64,000 nt of DNA from a virus. Positions 20,571 through 38,037 of this stretch are shown here, piece after piece; the stretch's first letter is position 1, and each line of letters begins with the position of its first letter. The position numbers and the translations under genes are program-made. The stretch covers positions 37,545 to 101,544 of the IMG/VR virus record IMGVR_UViG_3300026097_000015. One strand, written 5' to 3'. The notes under the pieces were generated by a model. That model made no database searches. It was not told the DNA's origin and saw only the letters and a program-made list of their open reading frames with translations.

Positions 20571-20765
20571 ATGGAAACAGCAATAACCACAGATGTAGAC
20601 ACAACAGTCTTCTATACAAAAGAAGATGTACAAGGATGGACTGTAGTAAAGAAATGTACAGAATGTAAGTTTGCAGTTTTCACTGGCAAGTCACAAGATG
20701 TAGATAAGTCTACTAAAACTATCAATGATATATTTGATAAAGGTCACAACTGCATAATTTTTTGA
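20571..20765 (+). CDS. Hypothetical protein (CxxC...HxC)
   Basis: ORF track. Confidence 0.55.
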   Translation: METAITTDVDTTVFYTKEDVQGWTVVKKCTECKFAVFTGKSQDVDKSTKTINDIFDKGHNCIIF

Positions 20766-21090
20766 GGGTCTACAACATAAGCATAGACAAATTCATACTC
20801 AATTGATGTATAGCAAGAATACCTATAAGAACACCAACTAATCTAAACCAAAAAAGAAATACGGGATTGGCCCTAATCTTTTCTTCTAGGTTTATATAGG
20901 AATATAGAAAACCTAAGATCAAACCTAATAGTGCAAATTCTGTCATATTCTAGTGTAACACACATAAATCTTTTGAAGGCTACGCCTTTATACCAAGATG
21001 ATTTGTTACCCTCGCAGAATTGATTCTATGGCTTCTGAGAGCTATTTTATAGCCATCGTAATGAAATAATATCTTACTGATTATAAAGCT

Positions 21091-26615: not shown

Positions 26616-26924
26616 TTACAATACCTCACATATACTTTCACCTTGTGCAACGAGGGAATAGAACTCATCTGACCCCTCGTCATTTGTATATACTACATCA
26701 ATAAACTTTAGATAGCAACTATTTTCGTACCAACTTCTTGCGGTATTTAGTAAGTCATATGGATTGCTATCTTTAGCTTTAATTAAATAATCATACTCAT
26801 AGTCAATCATTTGTTGGGTTTGCTTTTCATCCATCAGGATATAAACCTTGTGGCAACCCTCCCAAGCGATTGAGTCAGCTTCGTTGATTATGTTTTCCAT
26901 ACCCCACATCTCGTACTTACTCAT
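26616..26924 (-). CDS. Hypothetical protein (AWEGCHKVY, WYENSC.LKFI)
   Basis: GAGGAGG SD before MSKY. Confidence 0.7.
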   Translation of the reverse strand: MSKYEMWGMENIINEADSIAWEGCHKVYILMDEKQTQQMIDYEYDYLIKAKDSNPYDLLNTARSWYENSCYLKFIDVVYTNDEGSDEFYSLVAQGESICEVL

Positions 26925-27004
26925 CTTCTTCCTCCTCATACATGTCATAACAGCGTTTACATTCACCAAACCAAATGTCTGGTATTTGGGTTACCCCACA
27001 GGTT

Positions 27005-27211
27005 TTACAGGTAGTTAGAAGACTGCTCATCTTCTTCGTCCTTTAGCATTTCATCGTGTTCTGCATTTTGGTATGTTTCAAAACTAAATAAGTCTTCATC
27101 ACATTCAGGGCATTGAGCATAGTATCCCTCTGATACATCCTCAAAGGAAGTGGGAGCTCCACAACGAGCGTGTCTAAGCTTAGGTTCAGTCTTCATCATC
27201 ATCTGATTCAA
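27005..27211 (-). CDS. Small zinc-ribbon protein
   Basis: HARCG...CPECDEDL. Confidence 0.6.
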   Translation of the reverse strand: MNQMMMKTEPKLRHARCGAPTSFEDVSEGYYAQCPECDEDLFSFETYQNAEHDEMLKDEEDEQSSNYL

Positions 27212-27747: not shown

Positions 27748-27904
27748 TTATTCCTCCTTGGTTGATATGATTACACTACCATAGGGCATGGACATTTAAG
27801 TTCAAAACTCCAGGATTTCAAAATCTTCTTCGTAAAGAACAAATAATGTTTAACTAACTAAAAAGTTTGGTCGACCCCAGTATTCCAGATCAGGAATATG
27901 GGAA

Positions 27905-27932
27905 GGGCAGTTTATTCTCATGCCCAGGAGAA
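27905..27932 (-). other. 3'-UTR H-type pseudoknot, copy 1
   Basis: UUCUC-CU-GGGCA-U-GAGAA-UAAAC-UGCCC. Confidence 0.65.
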
Positions 27933-27937
27933 GTAGG

Positions 27938-28945
27938 TTATACGCCTACTGTTTCCCTAACAATCGCCATTAGACGATTCTTTTCTGCATTCACCATTGG
28001 GTCAAACCCTGATGCTGATGCATAGATTGATTCGCTGTTACCACCACGTGCTTTGCGGTACCAGTCTAGACGCTCAGTCATACCGTTCAACGCACCCCAA
28101 GCTGTTCCAGCAATGGTGTTGTTATATTCTCCAGTATAGATAGACTGTAGCATGTCAACTTTGGTTGTGTGCTTTTTGATGGACCCCTTGGAGTCTTTCT
28201 CTGGAGCAGGGTATGCCTTAGCTACAATCTGGTCAAAGGTATTCTTGCTAATCTCAGTTTCAATTAGTTTCTGAGCAAGCAATTGGAATTCGTCAATGTA
28301 GGCATTGGCTAGGCCTAGGGCTTCACGAGCTGCTTGCACCTTACCCTGAGCGGTTTGAGTGTGACGAATCTTGAATGACTGCTTGACACCTTTACGACCT
28401 TTACCAAGTACCAAGTTCAAAGTGTTAGCACAAACAACACGTACAGGAGTAACGGATGCCTGAATAGCAACTGAGCCATCGTGGCTAGTGTTTACTAGTA
28501 GATAGTTGTTGACCTTGTCAGATACGCCATTAGGGTCCAGAACCGTTTCACGCTCTAGGGCTAGTGAACCAAACACCTGACGTCCGCCCTTGATGGAGCC
28601 AGCAGTTTCCCAACGTCCTCCATCCAGCATGGCATCGCCAAATTCAAACAGGTCTTCATTCTGCAATGGAACATAACGCTCACCAACAACACCTAGGATG
28701 TCGTTCTGGCTACGGTCAAATGGGTTAGTACGTGTAACAAAGGAGTAACCCTTGTCAGATGAAAAGTTTTCGGGTACAGGAACTTCTTCCAAGCGGACGT
28801 TCCAGTCATTTAGGTTAGCAAGCTTTAGCATCTCTGCTGTAGACACTTCTTCATTGAACACTGTACCAAGCTTGTGCCAGGCAGGCTCTCTGAATGATGC
28901 AAAGGTAGCTTCGCCAGTTTCTGATAATTCTAATTCGTGGGCCAT
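27938..28945 (-). CDS. DUF932 / TIGR03299 phage-plasmid protein
   Basis: MAHELE..WHKLG, LGVVGERYVPLQN, WETAGS..GGR, NTSHDGS, TPVRVVCANTL, IRHT. Confidence 0.88.
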   Translation of the reverse strand: MAHELELSETGEATFASFREPAWHKLGTVFNEEVSTAEMLKLANLNDWNVRLEEVPVPENFSSDKGYSFVTRTNPFDRSQNDILGVVGERYVPLQNEDLFEFGDAMLDGGRWETAGSIKGGRQVFGSLALERETVLDPNGVSDKVNNYLLVNTSHDGSVAIQASVTPVRVVCANTLNLVLGKGRKGVKQSFKIRHTQTAQGKVQAAREALGLANAYIDEFQLLAQKLIETEISKNTFDQIVAKAYPAPEKDSKGSIKKHTTKVDMLQSIYTGEYNNTIAGTAWGALNGMTERLDWYRKARGGNSESIYASASGFDPMVNAEKNRLMAIVRETVGV

Positions 28946-29168
28946 GAGGTCCTTCTTTCTGCTAGGGGATGTTTACATGTATAATCTAACACAGGGGTAG
29001 GACATTTTGCAAGGTCTTCGTAAGACTTTCTTAAAGTATTTTATTACAAATTGGTAACAGCGGGTCGACCCTAGATTGATCCAAATGTCAAGGATAAAGC
29101 AAACCCCCTAGACTACACTTGGTCAGAAAAGCTTTCCATAGCTTCCCTTTTTCATCTAGGGGGTAGGC

Positions 29169-29195
29169 GGGTAGTTTAGAGAGATACCCAGCTCC
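29169..29195 (-). other. 3'-UTR H-type pseudoknot, copy 2
   Basis: GGAG-CU-GGGUA-U-CUCU-CUAAAC-UACCC. Confidence 0.65.
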
Positions 29196-29200
29196 AGTCA

Positions 29201-29650
29201 TTACAGAATTTCCATAATTGCCCCATAGGTGGAGGCACTTACTTCTTCCTGTGAAGTCATTTTGAGAATGTTTAGGTTCTTCTCAAGCAGTGACTTTCTA
29301 GTAGTGTAGTCACGACCAAAATGAGATTTCTGGTTTGGTCGCTCTGGCTCGTTTGGCTCTCTAGGAAAGTCCTCAATGTAATCAACATCAAAGGATACCT
29401 CAAACCTGTTGCCATAGTGACGGGACAAACGAATTGGGTCAGTATATTCATAGCCAATGCCGTTGCTGTTTGTCTTTAGATAGTTAGACACAAACGCAAT
29501 TACATCTTTCTTGTATTGCTCTTTCTCTGCCTCATACTGCTTACGCTTGGCAGGGTATTCAGCCTCTGCCTTTTCAATCTCAGCAATCTTGCTTTCAATC
29601 TCAGCAATTAGTTTTGCTACTGGAACTTTTACGCTAATGTTTCTTGCCAT
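29201..29650 (-). CDS. Hypothetical coiled-coil protein
   Basis: GAAAGTAGG SD. Confidence 0.8.
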   Translation of the reverse strand: MARNISVKVPVAKLIAEIESKIAEIEKAEAEYPAKRKQYEAEKEQYKKDVIAFVSNYLKTNSNGIGYEYTDPIRLSRHYGNRFEVSFDVDYIEDFPREPNEPERPNQKSHFGRDYTTRKSLLEKNLNILKMTSQEEVSASTYGAIMEIL

Positions 29651-29773
29651 TATGAAATCCTACTTTCATTATTAGTTTTGTTTTTGATTGTTAGGGGGTG
29701 AACTAGGGGAAAGCGTTCATTTCGGCTACCTCTACTATGGGCTTTCATTAAGGATAGCGAACCTAGTTCTAGT

Positions 29774-29802
29774 GGGGCAGTTTTGTGTGATACCCCAGCA
29801 CA
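29774..29802 (-). other. 3'-UTR H-type pseudoknot, copy 3
   Basis: UGUG-CU-GGGGUA-U-CACA-CAAAAC-UGCCCC. Confidence 0.65.
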
Positions 29803-29812
29803 ATAGGTTAGA

Positions 29813-29968
29813 CTACTTTTTGATAACAGTAGTCCAGCGAGGCTCGCCATTTACATCTAGGCGAACTCTGAATGTTCCATTTTTGTTGGCAACTACTTCT
29901 TGAATAGTGCCTGTAACACCACTCTTAGCGGTGGTGAACTGTGAGCCAACAGTTAGTGTGTTTTCCAT
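29813..29968 (-). CDS. Small SH3/KOW-like beta protein (51 aa, missing from ORF track)
   Basis: MENTLTVGSQFTTAKSGVTGTIQEVV...RVRLDVNGEPRWTTV; promoter plus AAGGA SD. Confidence 0.7.
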   Translation of the reverse strand: MENTLTVGSQFTTAKSGVTGTIQEVVANKNGTFRVRLDVNGEPRWTTVIKK

Positions 29969-32242: not shown

Positions 32243-32399
32243 TAGTTGGCCTTTCTTGGTTGATGGCTTTAGCCTAACACAGGGGTAGGACATTTATCCA
32301 GGATTTCGTAAACCACTTCGTAAATAAAATGTAACGGTTTGATAACAGCGGGTCGACCACAGAACCTCACCCCTGTCAAGGGGTGGGGCTGCTAAGGGG

Positions 32400-32648
32400 C
32401 TATGCCCTAATCTCGTCTAGGATTTGCTGGATAGCCTTCTCCCTAGGGGTGTAGAAAGGGACCTCACTTTTGCCATCTGCTGACCAGATGACCTCCTCAG
32501 TGTCATCTTGAACAATGAACTTGGGGTCCTCGTTGAAGTGGCGGAACACGTTGATAATCTCAGTGGTAAGCTCGTTGCCATCAAAGGTCCTGGTGTCAAT
32601 GGTGTCGCCATATAGGTCCAAAGCTCTAAAAGTGTAATCGTTGTTCAT
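32400..32648 (-). CDS. Hypothetical protein
   Basis: Own promoter, GGAGG SD. Confidence 0.75.
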   Translation of the reverse strand: MNNDYTFRALDLYGDTIDTRTFDGNELTTEIINVFRHFNEDPKFIVQDDTEEVIWSADGKSEVPFYTPREKAIQQILDEIRA

Positions 32649-32814
32649 AGGTTTTCCCTCCGTTGGTTGACAGCTTCAGCTTAGCATATACCCTGGACAT
32701 TTATCCACGATTTCATAAACTTCTTCGTAAATTGTTTGTTGTGATCCAAATGTTATATTCGGGAGTCGATGCATATTCCAGGGAGGGAATACAAGCCCCC
32801 TCCCCAAGAATACA

Positions 32815-37305: not shown

Positions 37306-38037
37306 ATGGCAATTAGCAAAAATATGGATTTTCCTAAAAGAAAGGCTAATTATGCAGACAAGGTTGCTCAGCAATCCATTACAAACACAGAAGCAGACTC
37401 TGGCAACTTTTTGCCAGTACCAGGTCCCCAGGGGCCAATGGGTCCAAAAGGAGACCGTGGACCAAAGGGTGAGCCAGGACAAAAAGGTCCAAAAGGTGAC
37501 AGCGGTGCTCCAGGTAAAAACGGTAAAGATGGCAAAGACGCAGATGACTTTGCACCTGTTTACGGACAGAAACCAGGCTGGGCAAAATACGTAAACGCTG
37601 CTCCAGATGACATTAAGCTAGGTGCCTCTCAAGGTGAAGACGGCTGGGTAAGTTTTTATATTGACCAACTTGATAAAAAAGAGACAACTGAAGAGTTCTT
37701 GCCAGAAAATGCAAATAGTTTGTACGGCACAAGTATTCGTAAGATTAACTTGCGAGAACTCAAGGTCGGTAGCCAGATTAGAATTAGCTATAATTTTGAA
37801 ATAACAACATTTGCAAACAATACCGAGATTTGGGCAAGATCTTTTTTTAAACAAACTGATAAAGAAATTGTAAGCTTTGTCGCAAATCTTAAATATCAAC
37901 ACACATACGACCTAACAGTTACACAAGATATTTATCTTGAAAGTGAAAAAGATCGGGGCACAGGATTAGTACCCCAGCTTCGTTCAGACATGGACGCATA
38001 TGCAAATCTTAAATCTATTACAATTTCAATTGTGTAA
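37306..38037 (+). CDS. Collagen-repeat virion protein
   Basis: (Gly-X-Y)n stretch GPQGPMGPKGDRGPKGE... Confidence 0.85.
   Translation: MAISKNMDFPKRKANYADKVAQQSITNTEADSGNFLPVPGPQGPMGPKGDRGPKGEPGQKGPKGDSGAPGKNGKDGKDADDFAPVYGQKPGWAKYVNAAPDDIKLGASQGEDGWVSFYIDQLDKKETTEEFLPENANSLYGTSIRKINLRELKVGSQIRISYNFEITTFANNTEIWARSFFKQTDKEIVSFVANLKYQHTYDLTVTQDIYLESEKDRGTGLVPQLRSDMDAYANLKSITISIV

Follow-up and report, generated by a model that had tools for sequence, protein, structure and literature searches.

Why should one small RNA fold recur just behind the stop codons of three unrelated genes in a viral genome? The question arises from a 64,000-nucleotide stretch of IMG/VR virus record IMGVR_UViG_3300026097_000015 (positions 37,545 to 101,544; hereafter the window), on whose minus strand a first-pass annotation, made from the letters alone, had placed three H-type pseudoknots with the common architecture S1-CU-S2-U-S1'-N(1-2)-AAAC-S2' (S1 and S2 being the two stems). 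Here, we confirm all three pseudoknots, 5, 5 and 10 nt past their stop codons, and conclude with high confidence that they belong to a large and so far uncatalogued RNA family, made up of compact H-type pseudoknots that the sense strand forms just behind stop codons.

Copy A (28 nt, 27905..27932, minus; UUCUC-CU-GGGCA-U-GAGAA-U-AAAC-UGCCC) starts 5 nt past the TAA (27938-27940) that ends the gene of a 335-aa DUF932/phrog_1221 protein (27938..28945, minus; Pfam E = 1.8e-49, PHROG E = 2.7e-98). Along the RNA it consists of S1 (27928-27932), loop 1 (L1) CU (27926-27927), S2 (27921-27925), the junction U (27920), S1' (27915-27919), loop 3 (L3) UAAAC (27910-27914) and S2' (27905-27909). Copy B (27 nt, 29169..29195, minus; GGAG-CU-GGGUA-U-CUCU-CU-AAAC-UACCC) starts 5 nt past the TAA (29201-29203) of a 149-aa open reading frame (ORF; 29201..29650, minus) and is made of S1 GGAG (29192-29195), CU (29190-29191), S2 GGGUA (29185-29189), U (29184), S1' CUCU (29180-29183), L3 CUAAAC (29174-29179) and S2' UACCC (29169-29173). 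Copy C (29 nt, 29774..29802, minus; UGUG-CU-GGGGUA-U-CACA-CA-AAAC-UGCCCC), whose second stem includes one U.G pair, starts 10 nt past the TAG (29813-29815) of a 51-aa ORF (29813..29968, minus), with S1 UGUG (29799-29802), CU (29797-29798), S2 GGGGUA (29791-29796), U (29790), S1' CACA (29786-29789), L3 CAAAAC (29780-29785) and S2' UGCCCC (29774-29779). The shared architecture is present in every copy, the CU, U and AAAC linkers are invariant among the three as described, and the upstream genes are indeed unrelated; the 149-aa and 51-aa ORFs match no Pfam or PHROG family.

The three copies stand out sharply from their surroundings. The loose pattern CTGGG-N6-20-AAACYRCCC has three matches in the window against 0.04 expected, a count reached in 0 of 100 shuffles, and none beyond copies A, B and C in the whole 101.5-kb viral genome. 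A covariance model trained on copies from other phages together with A and B scored A at 42.5 bits (E = 2e-9) and B at 36.8 bits and recovered the held-out copy C at 29.8 bits (E = 4e-6), and in the window it found no other match better than E = 0.25.

Is the fold itself under selection? We scanned IMG/VR with CTGGGYAT-N5-8-AAACTRCCC, a pattern that leaves stem 1 unconstrained, and obtained listed matches from at least 120 loci. Among the viral matches listed, stem 1 pairs over at least 3 bp in 113 of 124, with quite different sequences. For the 109 distinct sequences drawn from the matches listed (alignment A2), the three inner S1 pairs are formed in 94-96% and use 2-6 pair types; covariation is 0.435 as opposed to 0.147 in shuffles, with 0 of 500 shuffles reaching the observed value, and sliding the S1 partners by 1-3 columns drops pairing to 24-48%. 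GUC/GAC is the commonest first stem, the most frequent pairs being G-C (61/109), U-A (63/109) and C-G (76/109).

Stem 2 behaves in the same way. A descriptor in which CU and AAAC alone were fixed, run on 1.3 Mb of viral loci, gave 194 matches compared with 2 on the reversed sequence, and its variants (GGGCA/UGCCC, GAGCA/UGCUC, AGGCA/UGCCU, GGACA/UGUCC, GGCCA/UGGCC and AAGCA/UGCUU) all end in an A-U pair. Relatives retrieved by their DUF932 protein, and not by the RNA, offer an independent view of the site behind that gene: read by eye, about two thirds keep the knot with both stems changed in a compensatory way, and the remainder carry a plain GC hairpin in its place. The selected RNA structure that the first-pass annotation had proposed therefore holds, with S1 and S2 covariation far beyond what three copies could show. 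It is also specific to one strand. A U.G pair occupies S2 position 4 in 30 of the 109 sequences; such pairs become A.C on the opposite strand, and the fold therefore works in the sense strand only, that is, in RNA. Chance or a repeat at the DNA level was rejected on these grounds, as 0.04 copies are expected and a double-stranded DNA site would neither covary nor tolerate strand-specific G.U pairs.

The family layout shown by these copies is a first stem of 3-5 bp, free in sequence and always closed by C-G or G-C; CU as L1; a second stem of 5-6 bp, NNNYA/URNNN; a junction of U or A (U 76%, A 22% and C 2% across the family); and an L3 of 0-3 free bases followed by AAAC. AAAC-U-R-C is invariant in the 109 A2 matches, which were selected by pattern, and AAAC stands out also in an unconstrained knot scan. 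The geometry is sterically ordinary, with 1-2 nt of L1 spanning 5-6 bp of S2, a one-base junction, and 4-7 nt of L3 spanning 3-5 bp of S1, and the family belongs, as a variant, to the class of compact H-type pseudoknots. In 54% of copies S2' is followed by an A, which is able to pair with the L1 U. A tRNA-like 3' end, with ACCA following S2', was considered and rejected, as ACC occurs there in 17 of 153 copies, no excess over single-base frequencies; the frequent A more simply extends S2 by pairing with the L1 U. The five bases past the knot are almost free of G (1-8%; viral loci L004-L155).

The first-pass annotation did not recognise the family, and neither does Rfam: a search of the three window sites against Rfam 15 found nothing at either the gathering threshold or E <= 10, be it preQ1-I, STAXI, tmRNA, pistol or any other family. 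We searched the literature by topic and by motif letters and found no description of the knot. As far as can be told, this is a real and well-supported RNA family that is undescribed in Rfam and in the literature searched.

The family extends over more than 120 viral contigs and more than 120 bacterial contigs or contigs of metagenome-assembled genomes (MAGs). BLAST with the 32-nt copies as queries, which finds near-identical copies only, gave intergenic same-strand matches in cultured phages, namely those of Moorella, Corynebacterium (phi673 and phi674; the phi673 knot lies at MG324353 30551-30579), Nostoc, Lactobacillus, Cellulosimicrobium, Microbacterium and Streptomyces, in Synechococcus phages S-EIVl, S-CRM01, S-RIM4 and ACG-2014j, in a rodent-gut microvirus and in crAss-like phages. 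The clear full-length intergenic matches in cultured phages belong mostly to phages of Actinobacteria, Firmicutes and Cyanobacteria; matches in enterobacteria and Pseudomonas phages are partial or intragenic and were set aside as probably chance. A bacterial scan of one genome per prokaryotic species, made with the GUC/GAC form only, yielded matches listed from at least 120 loci, in MAGs of many phyla and in some cases on megabase contigs. This strict sub-pattern is rare per genome, occurring in 3 of 400 other Gammaproteobacteria and 0 of 400 other Bacilli.

To what is the knot anchored? Of 151 viral copies, 86 start 3-15 nt past the stop of a same-strand ORF of at least 50 aa, compared with 4.6% of random positions and 5 of 148 placements on the opposite strand. 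The distance from stop to knot has its mode at 5 nt and falls mostly at 4-7 nt, never at 0-2 nt, with a long tail in which 32 copies lie at 16-60 nt. Distances from the knot to the next start codon vary widely (median 105 nt, 5th-95th percentile 14-447 nt), which links the knot to the gene before it. The choice of stop codon is skewed as well: the stops that adjoin a knot in viral loci L004-L155 are TAA in 52, TAG in 30 and TGA in 8 cases (n = 90), as against 534, 248 and 344 for other same-strand ORFs (n = 1126), a depletion of TGA (8/90 vs 344/1126; Fisher p = 3e-6) computed without regard to sequence relatedness or gene class. The upstream families are diverse, the commonest being DUF932/phrog_1221 (9/67), followed by peroxidase (3) and HTH_39 (3), with ssDNA-binding and AhpD-like proteins also represented.

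In bacteria the knot is found in a further setting. In bacterial and MAG loci (L156-L275), 69-74 of 130 knots lie in fixed register at the end of a conserved Cys/His ORF of 18-25 codons (for example L158:4607-4681:-, L185:4028-4093:- and L169:4899-4973:+), and the RNA motif is the same as that of the phage gene-end knot. The peptide consensus is approximately M-K/T-R-F-M-I/V-P-R-V-A-H-C-x-E/D-G-C/H (core R-V-A-H-C-x-E/D-G-C/H), variation is concentrated at third codon positions, and the peptide matches no Pfam or NCBIfam family. Nor did the bacterial knot copies and the micro-ORF region give a match in Rfam. The stop of the micro-ORF lies 4-5 nt before S1, overlaps S1 as TAG, or, in 42 of 69, falls within the knot as a UGA that the junction U makes with the GA of S1', a count biased by a search pattern that fixed this UGA. 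Genes downstream of these knots encode Rrf2 regulators (10/61) and also YHS, hemerythrin, ferritin and CopA-type proteins.

The knot also occurs in arrays. Locus L209 has four copies, after several successive genes of an operon, and L210 (Saccharibacteria) has three copies in 2.1 kb. A Bacteroidetes MAG (G005:C392:12713-17480) carries six knots in 5 kb after successive operon genes, five of them with an identical stem 1.

Such placement raises the possibility that the knot is read by the terminating ribosome, tuning termination, recycling, re-initiation or coupling, and acting in the micro-ORFs as a translation-linked switch. Frameshift and readthrough pseudoknots use the same 4-7 nt spacer, which equals the distance from the A-site codon to the mRNA entrance of the ribosome. 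The spacing of the knot, the depletion of TGA beside it, the fixed register with the micro-ORF and arrays such as that of L209 would all suit a ribosome-directed element. Against it stand the long tail of distances, the failure of the TGA statistic to account for relatedness and gene class, and knots that lie directly before tRNAs or promoters with no downstream cistron to couple. Recoding in particular finds no place at the window copies: a -1 frameshift or readthrough signal was rejected because no slippery heptamer is present and because reading on, whether in frame or at -1, meets a stop immediately or after a short extension (behind copy B, a second stop follows directly). We consider action on the terminating ribosome unlikely.

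Known recoding knots are nonetheless a structural reference. Pseudoknots of the beet western yellows virus (BWYV) type, from luteoviruses and enamoviruses, are H-type; their L1 of 1-2 nt includes C, one base joins the stems, and an A-rich L3 occupies the minor groove of S1. The phage knot shares with the luteovirus and enamovirus -1 frameshift pseudoknots (discussed in PMC10321173) the H-type layout and a position 5-9 nt past the A-site codon; it differs in having a stop codon instead of a slippery heptamer and an S2 of 5-6 bp instead of 3.

Could the knot instead be a riboswitch-like aptamer that recognises a small ligand or some conserved protein of the host, as the first-pass annotation, which named a protein or ligand-binding aptamer, had also suggested? 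The unpaired CU, the junction base, AAAC and the A-U pair of S2 are invariant, size and H-type layout recall preQ1-I aptamers, and the company of the knot includes the bacterial metal and redox genes listed above and, on viral-classed contigs, upstream peroxidase, AhpD-like and Hsp20 genes. The invariant bases are, however, those expected for loop-groove triples in a closed knot, the one-base junction between the stems offers no obvious pocket, the knot comes after genes and not before them, and Rfam returned no riboswitch match. A ligand aptamer is unlikely because the neighbouring phage genes are unrelated to one another, and an aptamer of either kind seems to us quite improbable.

The peroxidase genes, of ~680-700 aa, precede the knot at L059:10621-12666:+, L102:5306-7408:- and L155:5758-7836:-, with a stop-to-knot distance of 13 nt in L059 and within 15 nt in the other two; genes for AhpD-like (CMD) and Hsp20 proteins also precede it on viral-classed contigs. 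Together with Rrf2, these contexts are hints of a link to oxidative stress.

The pseudoknot PK1 of transfer-messenger RNA (tmRNA) and the preQ1-I aptamers are small H-type knots with an A-rich third loop. The window knots differ from both in that they have no sequence match to either, no Rfam tmRNA or preQ1 match in the window and no queuosine genes nearby. One copy in crAss-like phage cr7_1 (L279:1199-1227:+; NC_055895.1 ~20756-20784; ACAAC-CU-AGGCA-U-GUUGU-AAAAC-UGCCU) lies within a gene that both its annotation and ARAGORN identify as a permuted tmRNA, ~38 nt past the tRNA-like T-arm/acceptor end.

What follows the knot? A tRNA 5' end lies 3-18 nt past the knot in 8 of 158 copies, in 7 of them at 3-9 nt, so that RNase P would leave an upstream RNA ending in the knot and a very short tail. 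In the relative L008 the packing is extreme: the DUF932 stop, a 5-nt gap, the knot (L008:4027-4053), a 4-nt gap and tRNA-Gln follow one another, so that after an RNase P cut only 4 nt would remain beyond the knot at the end of the DUF932 message. Elsewhere, 32% of knots have a co-directional gene whose Shine-Dalgarno sequence and start codon come within 60 nt, and 7% have a canonical hairpin with U-tract within 90 nt, compared with 7.6% for control stops. For the next 28 nt the folding energy is -2.46 kcal/mol (-2.0 in shuffled and -2.30 in control sequence), and no hairpin is preferred across the family.

These figures bear on the idea that RNA polymerase reads the knot as a cue to terminate transcription or to escape termination. 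Its gene-end site, and the position of the window knots at cassette boundaries before hairpins and promoters, could be taken that way. Hairpins with U-tracts are no more frequent than at control stops, a third of knots or nearly so are soon followed by a translation start, and the knot itself has no following U-tract; we regard a transcription signal as very improbable.

In the window, by contrast with the family at large, every copy does have a hairpin 1-5 nt downstream. RNAfold places one 1 nt past copy A (27875..27903, minus), a long one 5 nt past copy B (29103..29164, minus) that is followed by the terminator-like UUUGCUUUAU, and a long-range stem ~4 nt past copy C (29700..29769, minus) that has no Rfam match. 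The hairpin behind copy A belongs to a cassette-boundary module and is not a family-wide motif; in the relative L004, read by eye, a similar hairpin is apparently kept without the knot. The module is repeated on the minus strand in the order hairpin, GGTCGACC(CGCTGTTAYCAA) core, TTACGAAGA-type box and promoter-like sequence, and occurs with the knot at two sites and without it at 32300-32400. The GGTCGACC cores lie at 27869-27877, 29062-29071 and 32350-32358 (minus) and the TTACGAAGA boxes at 27827-27835, 29015-29023, 32315-32323 and 32722-32730 (minus); GGGNCGRCC has 4 matches against 0.5 expected, and the TTACGAAGA box 39 against 14.6. The suggestion that the knot serves to release structured RNAs downstream is thus not borne out: across the family there is no preferred hairpin or terminator, and in the window the hairpins belong to a separate boundary module that is also present without a knot (32340-32400).

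What, then, might the knot do? The reading that we rank first, tentatively and at somewhat less than even confidence, is that it serves as a 3'-end cap and insulator of the upstream cistron, in keeping with the mRNA-stabilising nuclease roadblock that the first-pass annotation had suggested; we rank it so because the knot is anchored to stops, lies very close to the tRNAs that follow it, and gives way to a plain hairpin in relatives. The knot would fold on leaving the polymerase. A ribosome on the stop codon would reach only ~4-5 nt past it, just short of the knot, which would therefore stay folded and, needing no protein, cap the upstream cistron by itself. Once a new 3' end has been made downstream, whether by endonuclease cleavage, by termination at a hairpin beyond the knot or by RNase P acting on a tRNA there, 3'-to-5' exonucleases would trim back to the knot and halt, and the stop codon and ORF would survive. 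The knot would also keep a following promoter, tRNA or ribosome-binding site clear of the upstream ribosome.

Repetitive extragenic palindromic (REP) and terminator hairpins are intercistronic or 3'-terminal stabilisers of mRNA in bacteria and phages. The knot resembles them in its gene-end site and in that a plain hairpin apparently substitutes for it at the orthologous site, which suggests that the knot and a plain GC hairpin are interchangeable gene-end structures; it differs in being a conserved pseudoknot with invariant loop bases.

Several observations fit a cap poorly. The window hairpins 1-5 nt past each knot would themselves cap a 3' end, so that the knot looks redundant for capping there. 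A pure 3' cap explains neither the depletion of TGA (8/90 vs 344/1126) nor the micro-ORF stops that lie inside the knot (42/69). Moreover, the RNAs that the knot most resembles, coremin and the exonuclease-resistant RNA (xrRNA) variant xrRNA-WCC, block machines that travel 5' to 3' and not 3' to 5' (PMC10520033, PMC10321173).

How close is that resemblance? Coremin (xrRNA-C) and its Watson-Crick variant xrRNA-WCC come from plant, fungal and picorna-like RNA viruses (PMC6546385, PMC10520033, PMC10321173). Coremin reads GUC-CGAA-GAC-GUUAAACUAC followed by a second hairpin (hp2), with a loop consensus of YGAD (4 nt) or YGNNAD (6 nt) (PMC10520033); in xrRNA-WCC, the loop pairs with the bases after AAAC to form a 3-bp loop-spacer stem (PMC10321173). 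Both stall Xrn1 and scanning ribosomes and give 20-30% -1 frameshifting in vitro (PMC10520033, PMC10321173). The phage knot is likewise compact, stand-alone and of similar size. Its first stem of 3-5 bp compares with 3-4 bp, and its commonest form, GUC/GAC, is the stem of the coremin type member; the conserved spacer ...UUAAACUAC follows the hairpin, and GUUAAACUAC is complete in some phage copies. Almost every letter of the 3' segment N-UUAAAC-UAC is common to both, the loop begins with a pyrimidine, and the loop pairs with bases past AAAC as in coremin and xrRNA-WCC. Phage copy L056 reads GUC-CUGGGUAU-GAC-GUUAAACUAC-CC.

The differences are equally specific. The phage loop is the 8-nt CUGGGYAU, whose second base is U and not G and which fits neither YGAD nor YGNNAD; S2 has 5-6 bp compared with the 3-bp stem of xrRNA-WCC; hp2, which coremin needs for resistance to Xrn1, is not a feature of the phage family (-2.46 vs -2.30 kcal/mol); and the knot is hosted by a DNA phage or a bacterium, at a gene end just past a stop. 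The knot resembles coremin and by analogy may fold and work alike, and it stands outside the coremin family because its loop is 8 nt long, departs from YGAD/YGNNAD and has no general hp2.

If the analogy extended to function, the knot would be a roadblock to machines moving 5' to 3', stopping RNase J, scanning RNase E, Rho or readthrough ribosomes and shielding or insulating what lies downstream. The near-identity of the core to coremin (the L056 copy, the prevalence of GUC/GAC, the loop-spacer stem of the WCC kind) and the stalling ability of coremin-type RNAs argue for it, as does the host range of the clear cultured-phage matches. Actinobacteria, Firmicutes and Cyanobacteria possess RNase J, and flaviviral xrRNAs have reportedly been examined with bacterial RNase J1. 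Yet the knot is fixed in position to the upstream stop and not to the downstream start; a 5' shield before a tRNA would be pointless because RNase P removes the leader anyway; the hairpin that coremin requires is not a family feature; and the strict sub-pattern is rare in both Bacilli and Gammaproteobacteria, so that the distribution does not simply follow RNase J. A 5'-to-3' roadblock is accordingly, in our estimate, possible and clearly less probable than the 3'-end cap.

One further explanation from the first-pass annotation, an antitoxin-like decoy RNA, is settled by the anatomy of the window. Type III antitoxin RNAs are also small pseudoknots, and those of the ToxI kind are ~36-nt tandem repeats beside an endoribonuclease toxin gene. 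Here the copies are dispersed at distances of ~0.6 and 1.3 kb, behind three different genes, and Pfam and PHROG searches of the adjacent window genes found no toxin family. With neither tandem repeats nor a toxin gene the proposal fails and is effectively refuted; to a decoy, or to chance or DNA-level repeats, we assign a negligible probability.

A tiny, strongly covarying fold that spans phage lineages and bacterial phyla and is absent from Rfam and the papers searched makes a well-defined, testable unknown. By analogy, and doubtfully, it might be the first prokaryotic counterpart of coremin: a protein-independent roadblock of ~28 nt, set in register with stop codons by phages, mobile elements and some bacteria, and in bacteria fused to a Cys/His micro-gene as a translation-linked stress or metal sensor. 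Should the knot cap or block, it would provide a portable 28-nt part with which to stabilise or insulate cistrons, and would naturally connect mRNA decay in bacteria with the exonuclease-resistant RNAs that eukaryotic viruses make. Its fixed register with stops and with the bacterial micro-gene makes the encounter of a terminating ribosome with a downstream RNA structure directly testable.

Two small ORFs of the window lie downstream of copy A. A 117-aa ORF (26616-26969, minus) has a sub-threshold Pfam match to XRN_N, the N-terminal domain of 5'-3' exonucleases (E = 0.0024, 17.8 bits as against a cut-off of 22.9), and an adjoining 68-aa ORF (27005-27211, minus) aligns to the start of a 323-position PHROG profile. 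Together they could represent fragments of a FEN-like or 5'-3' exonuclease-like gene that has been split.

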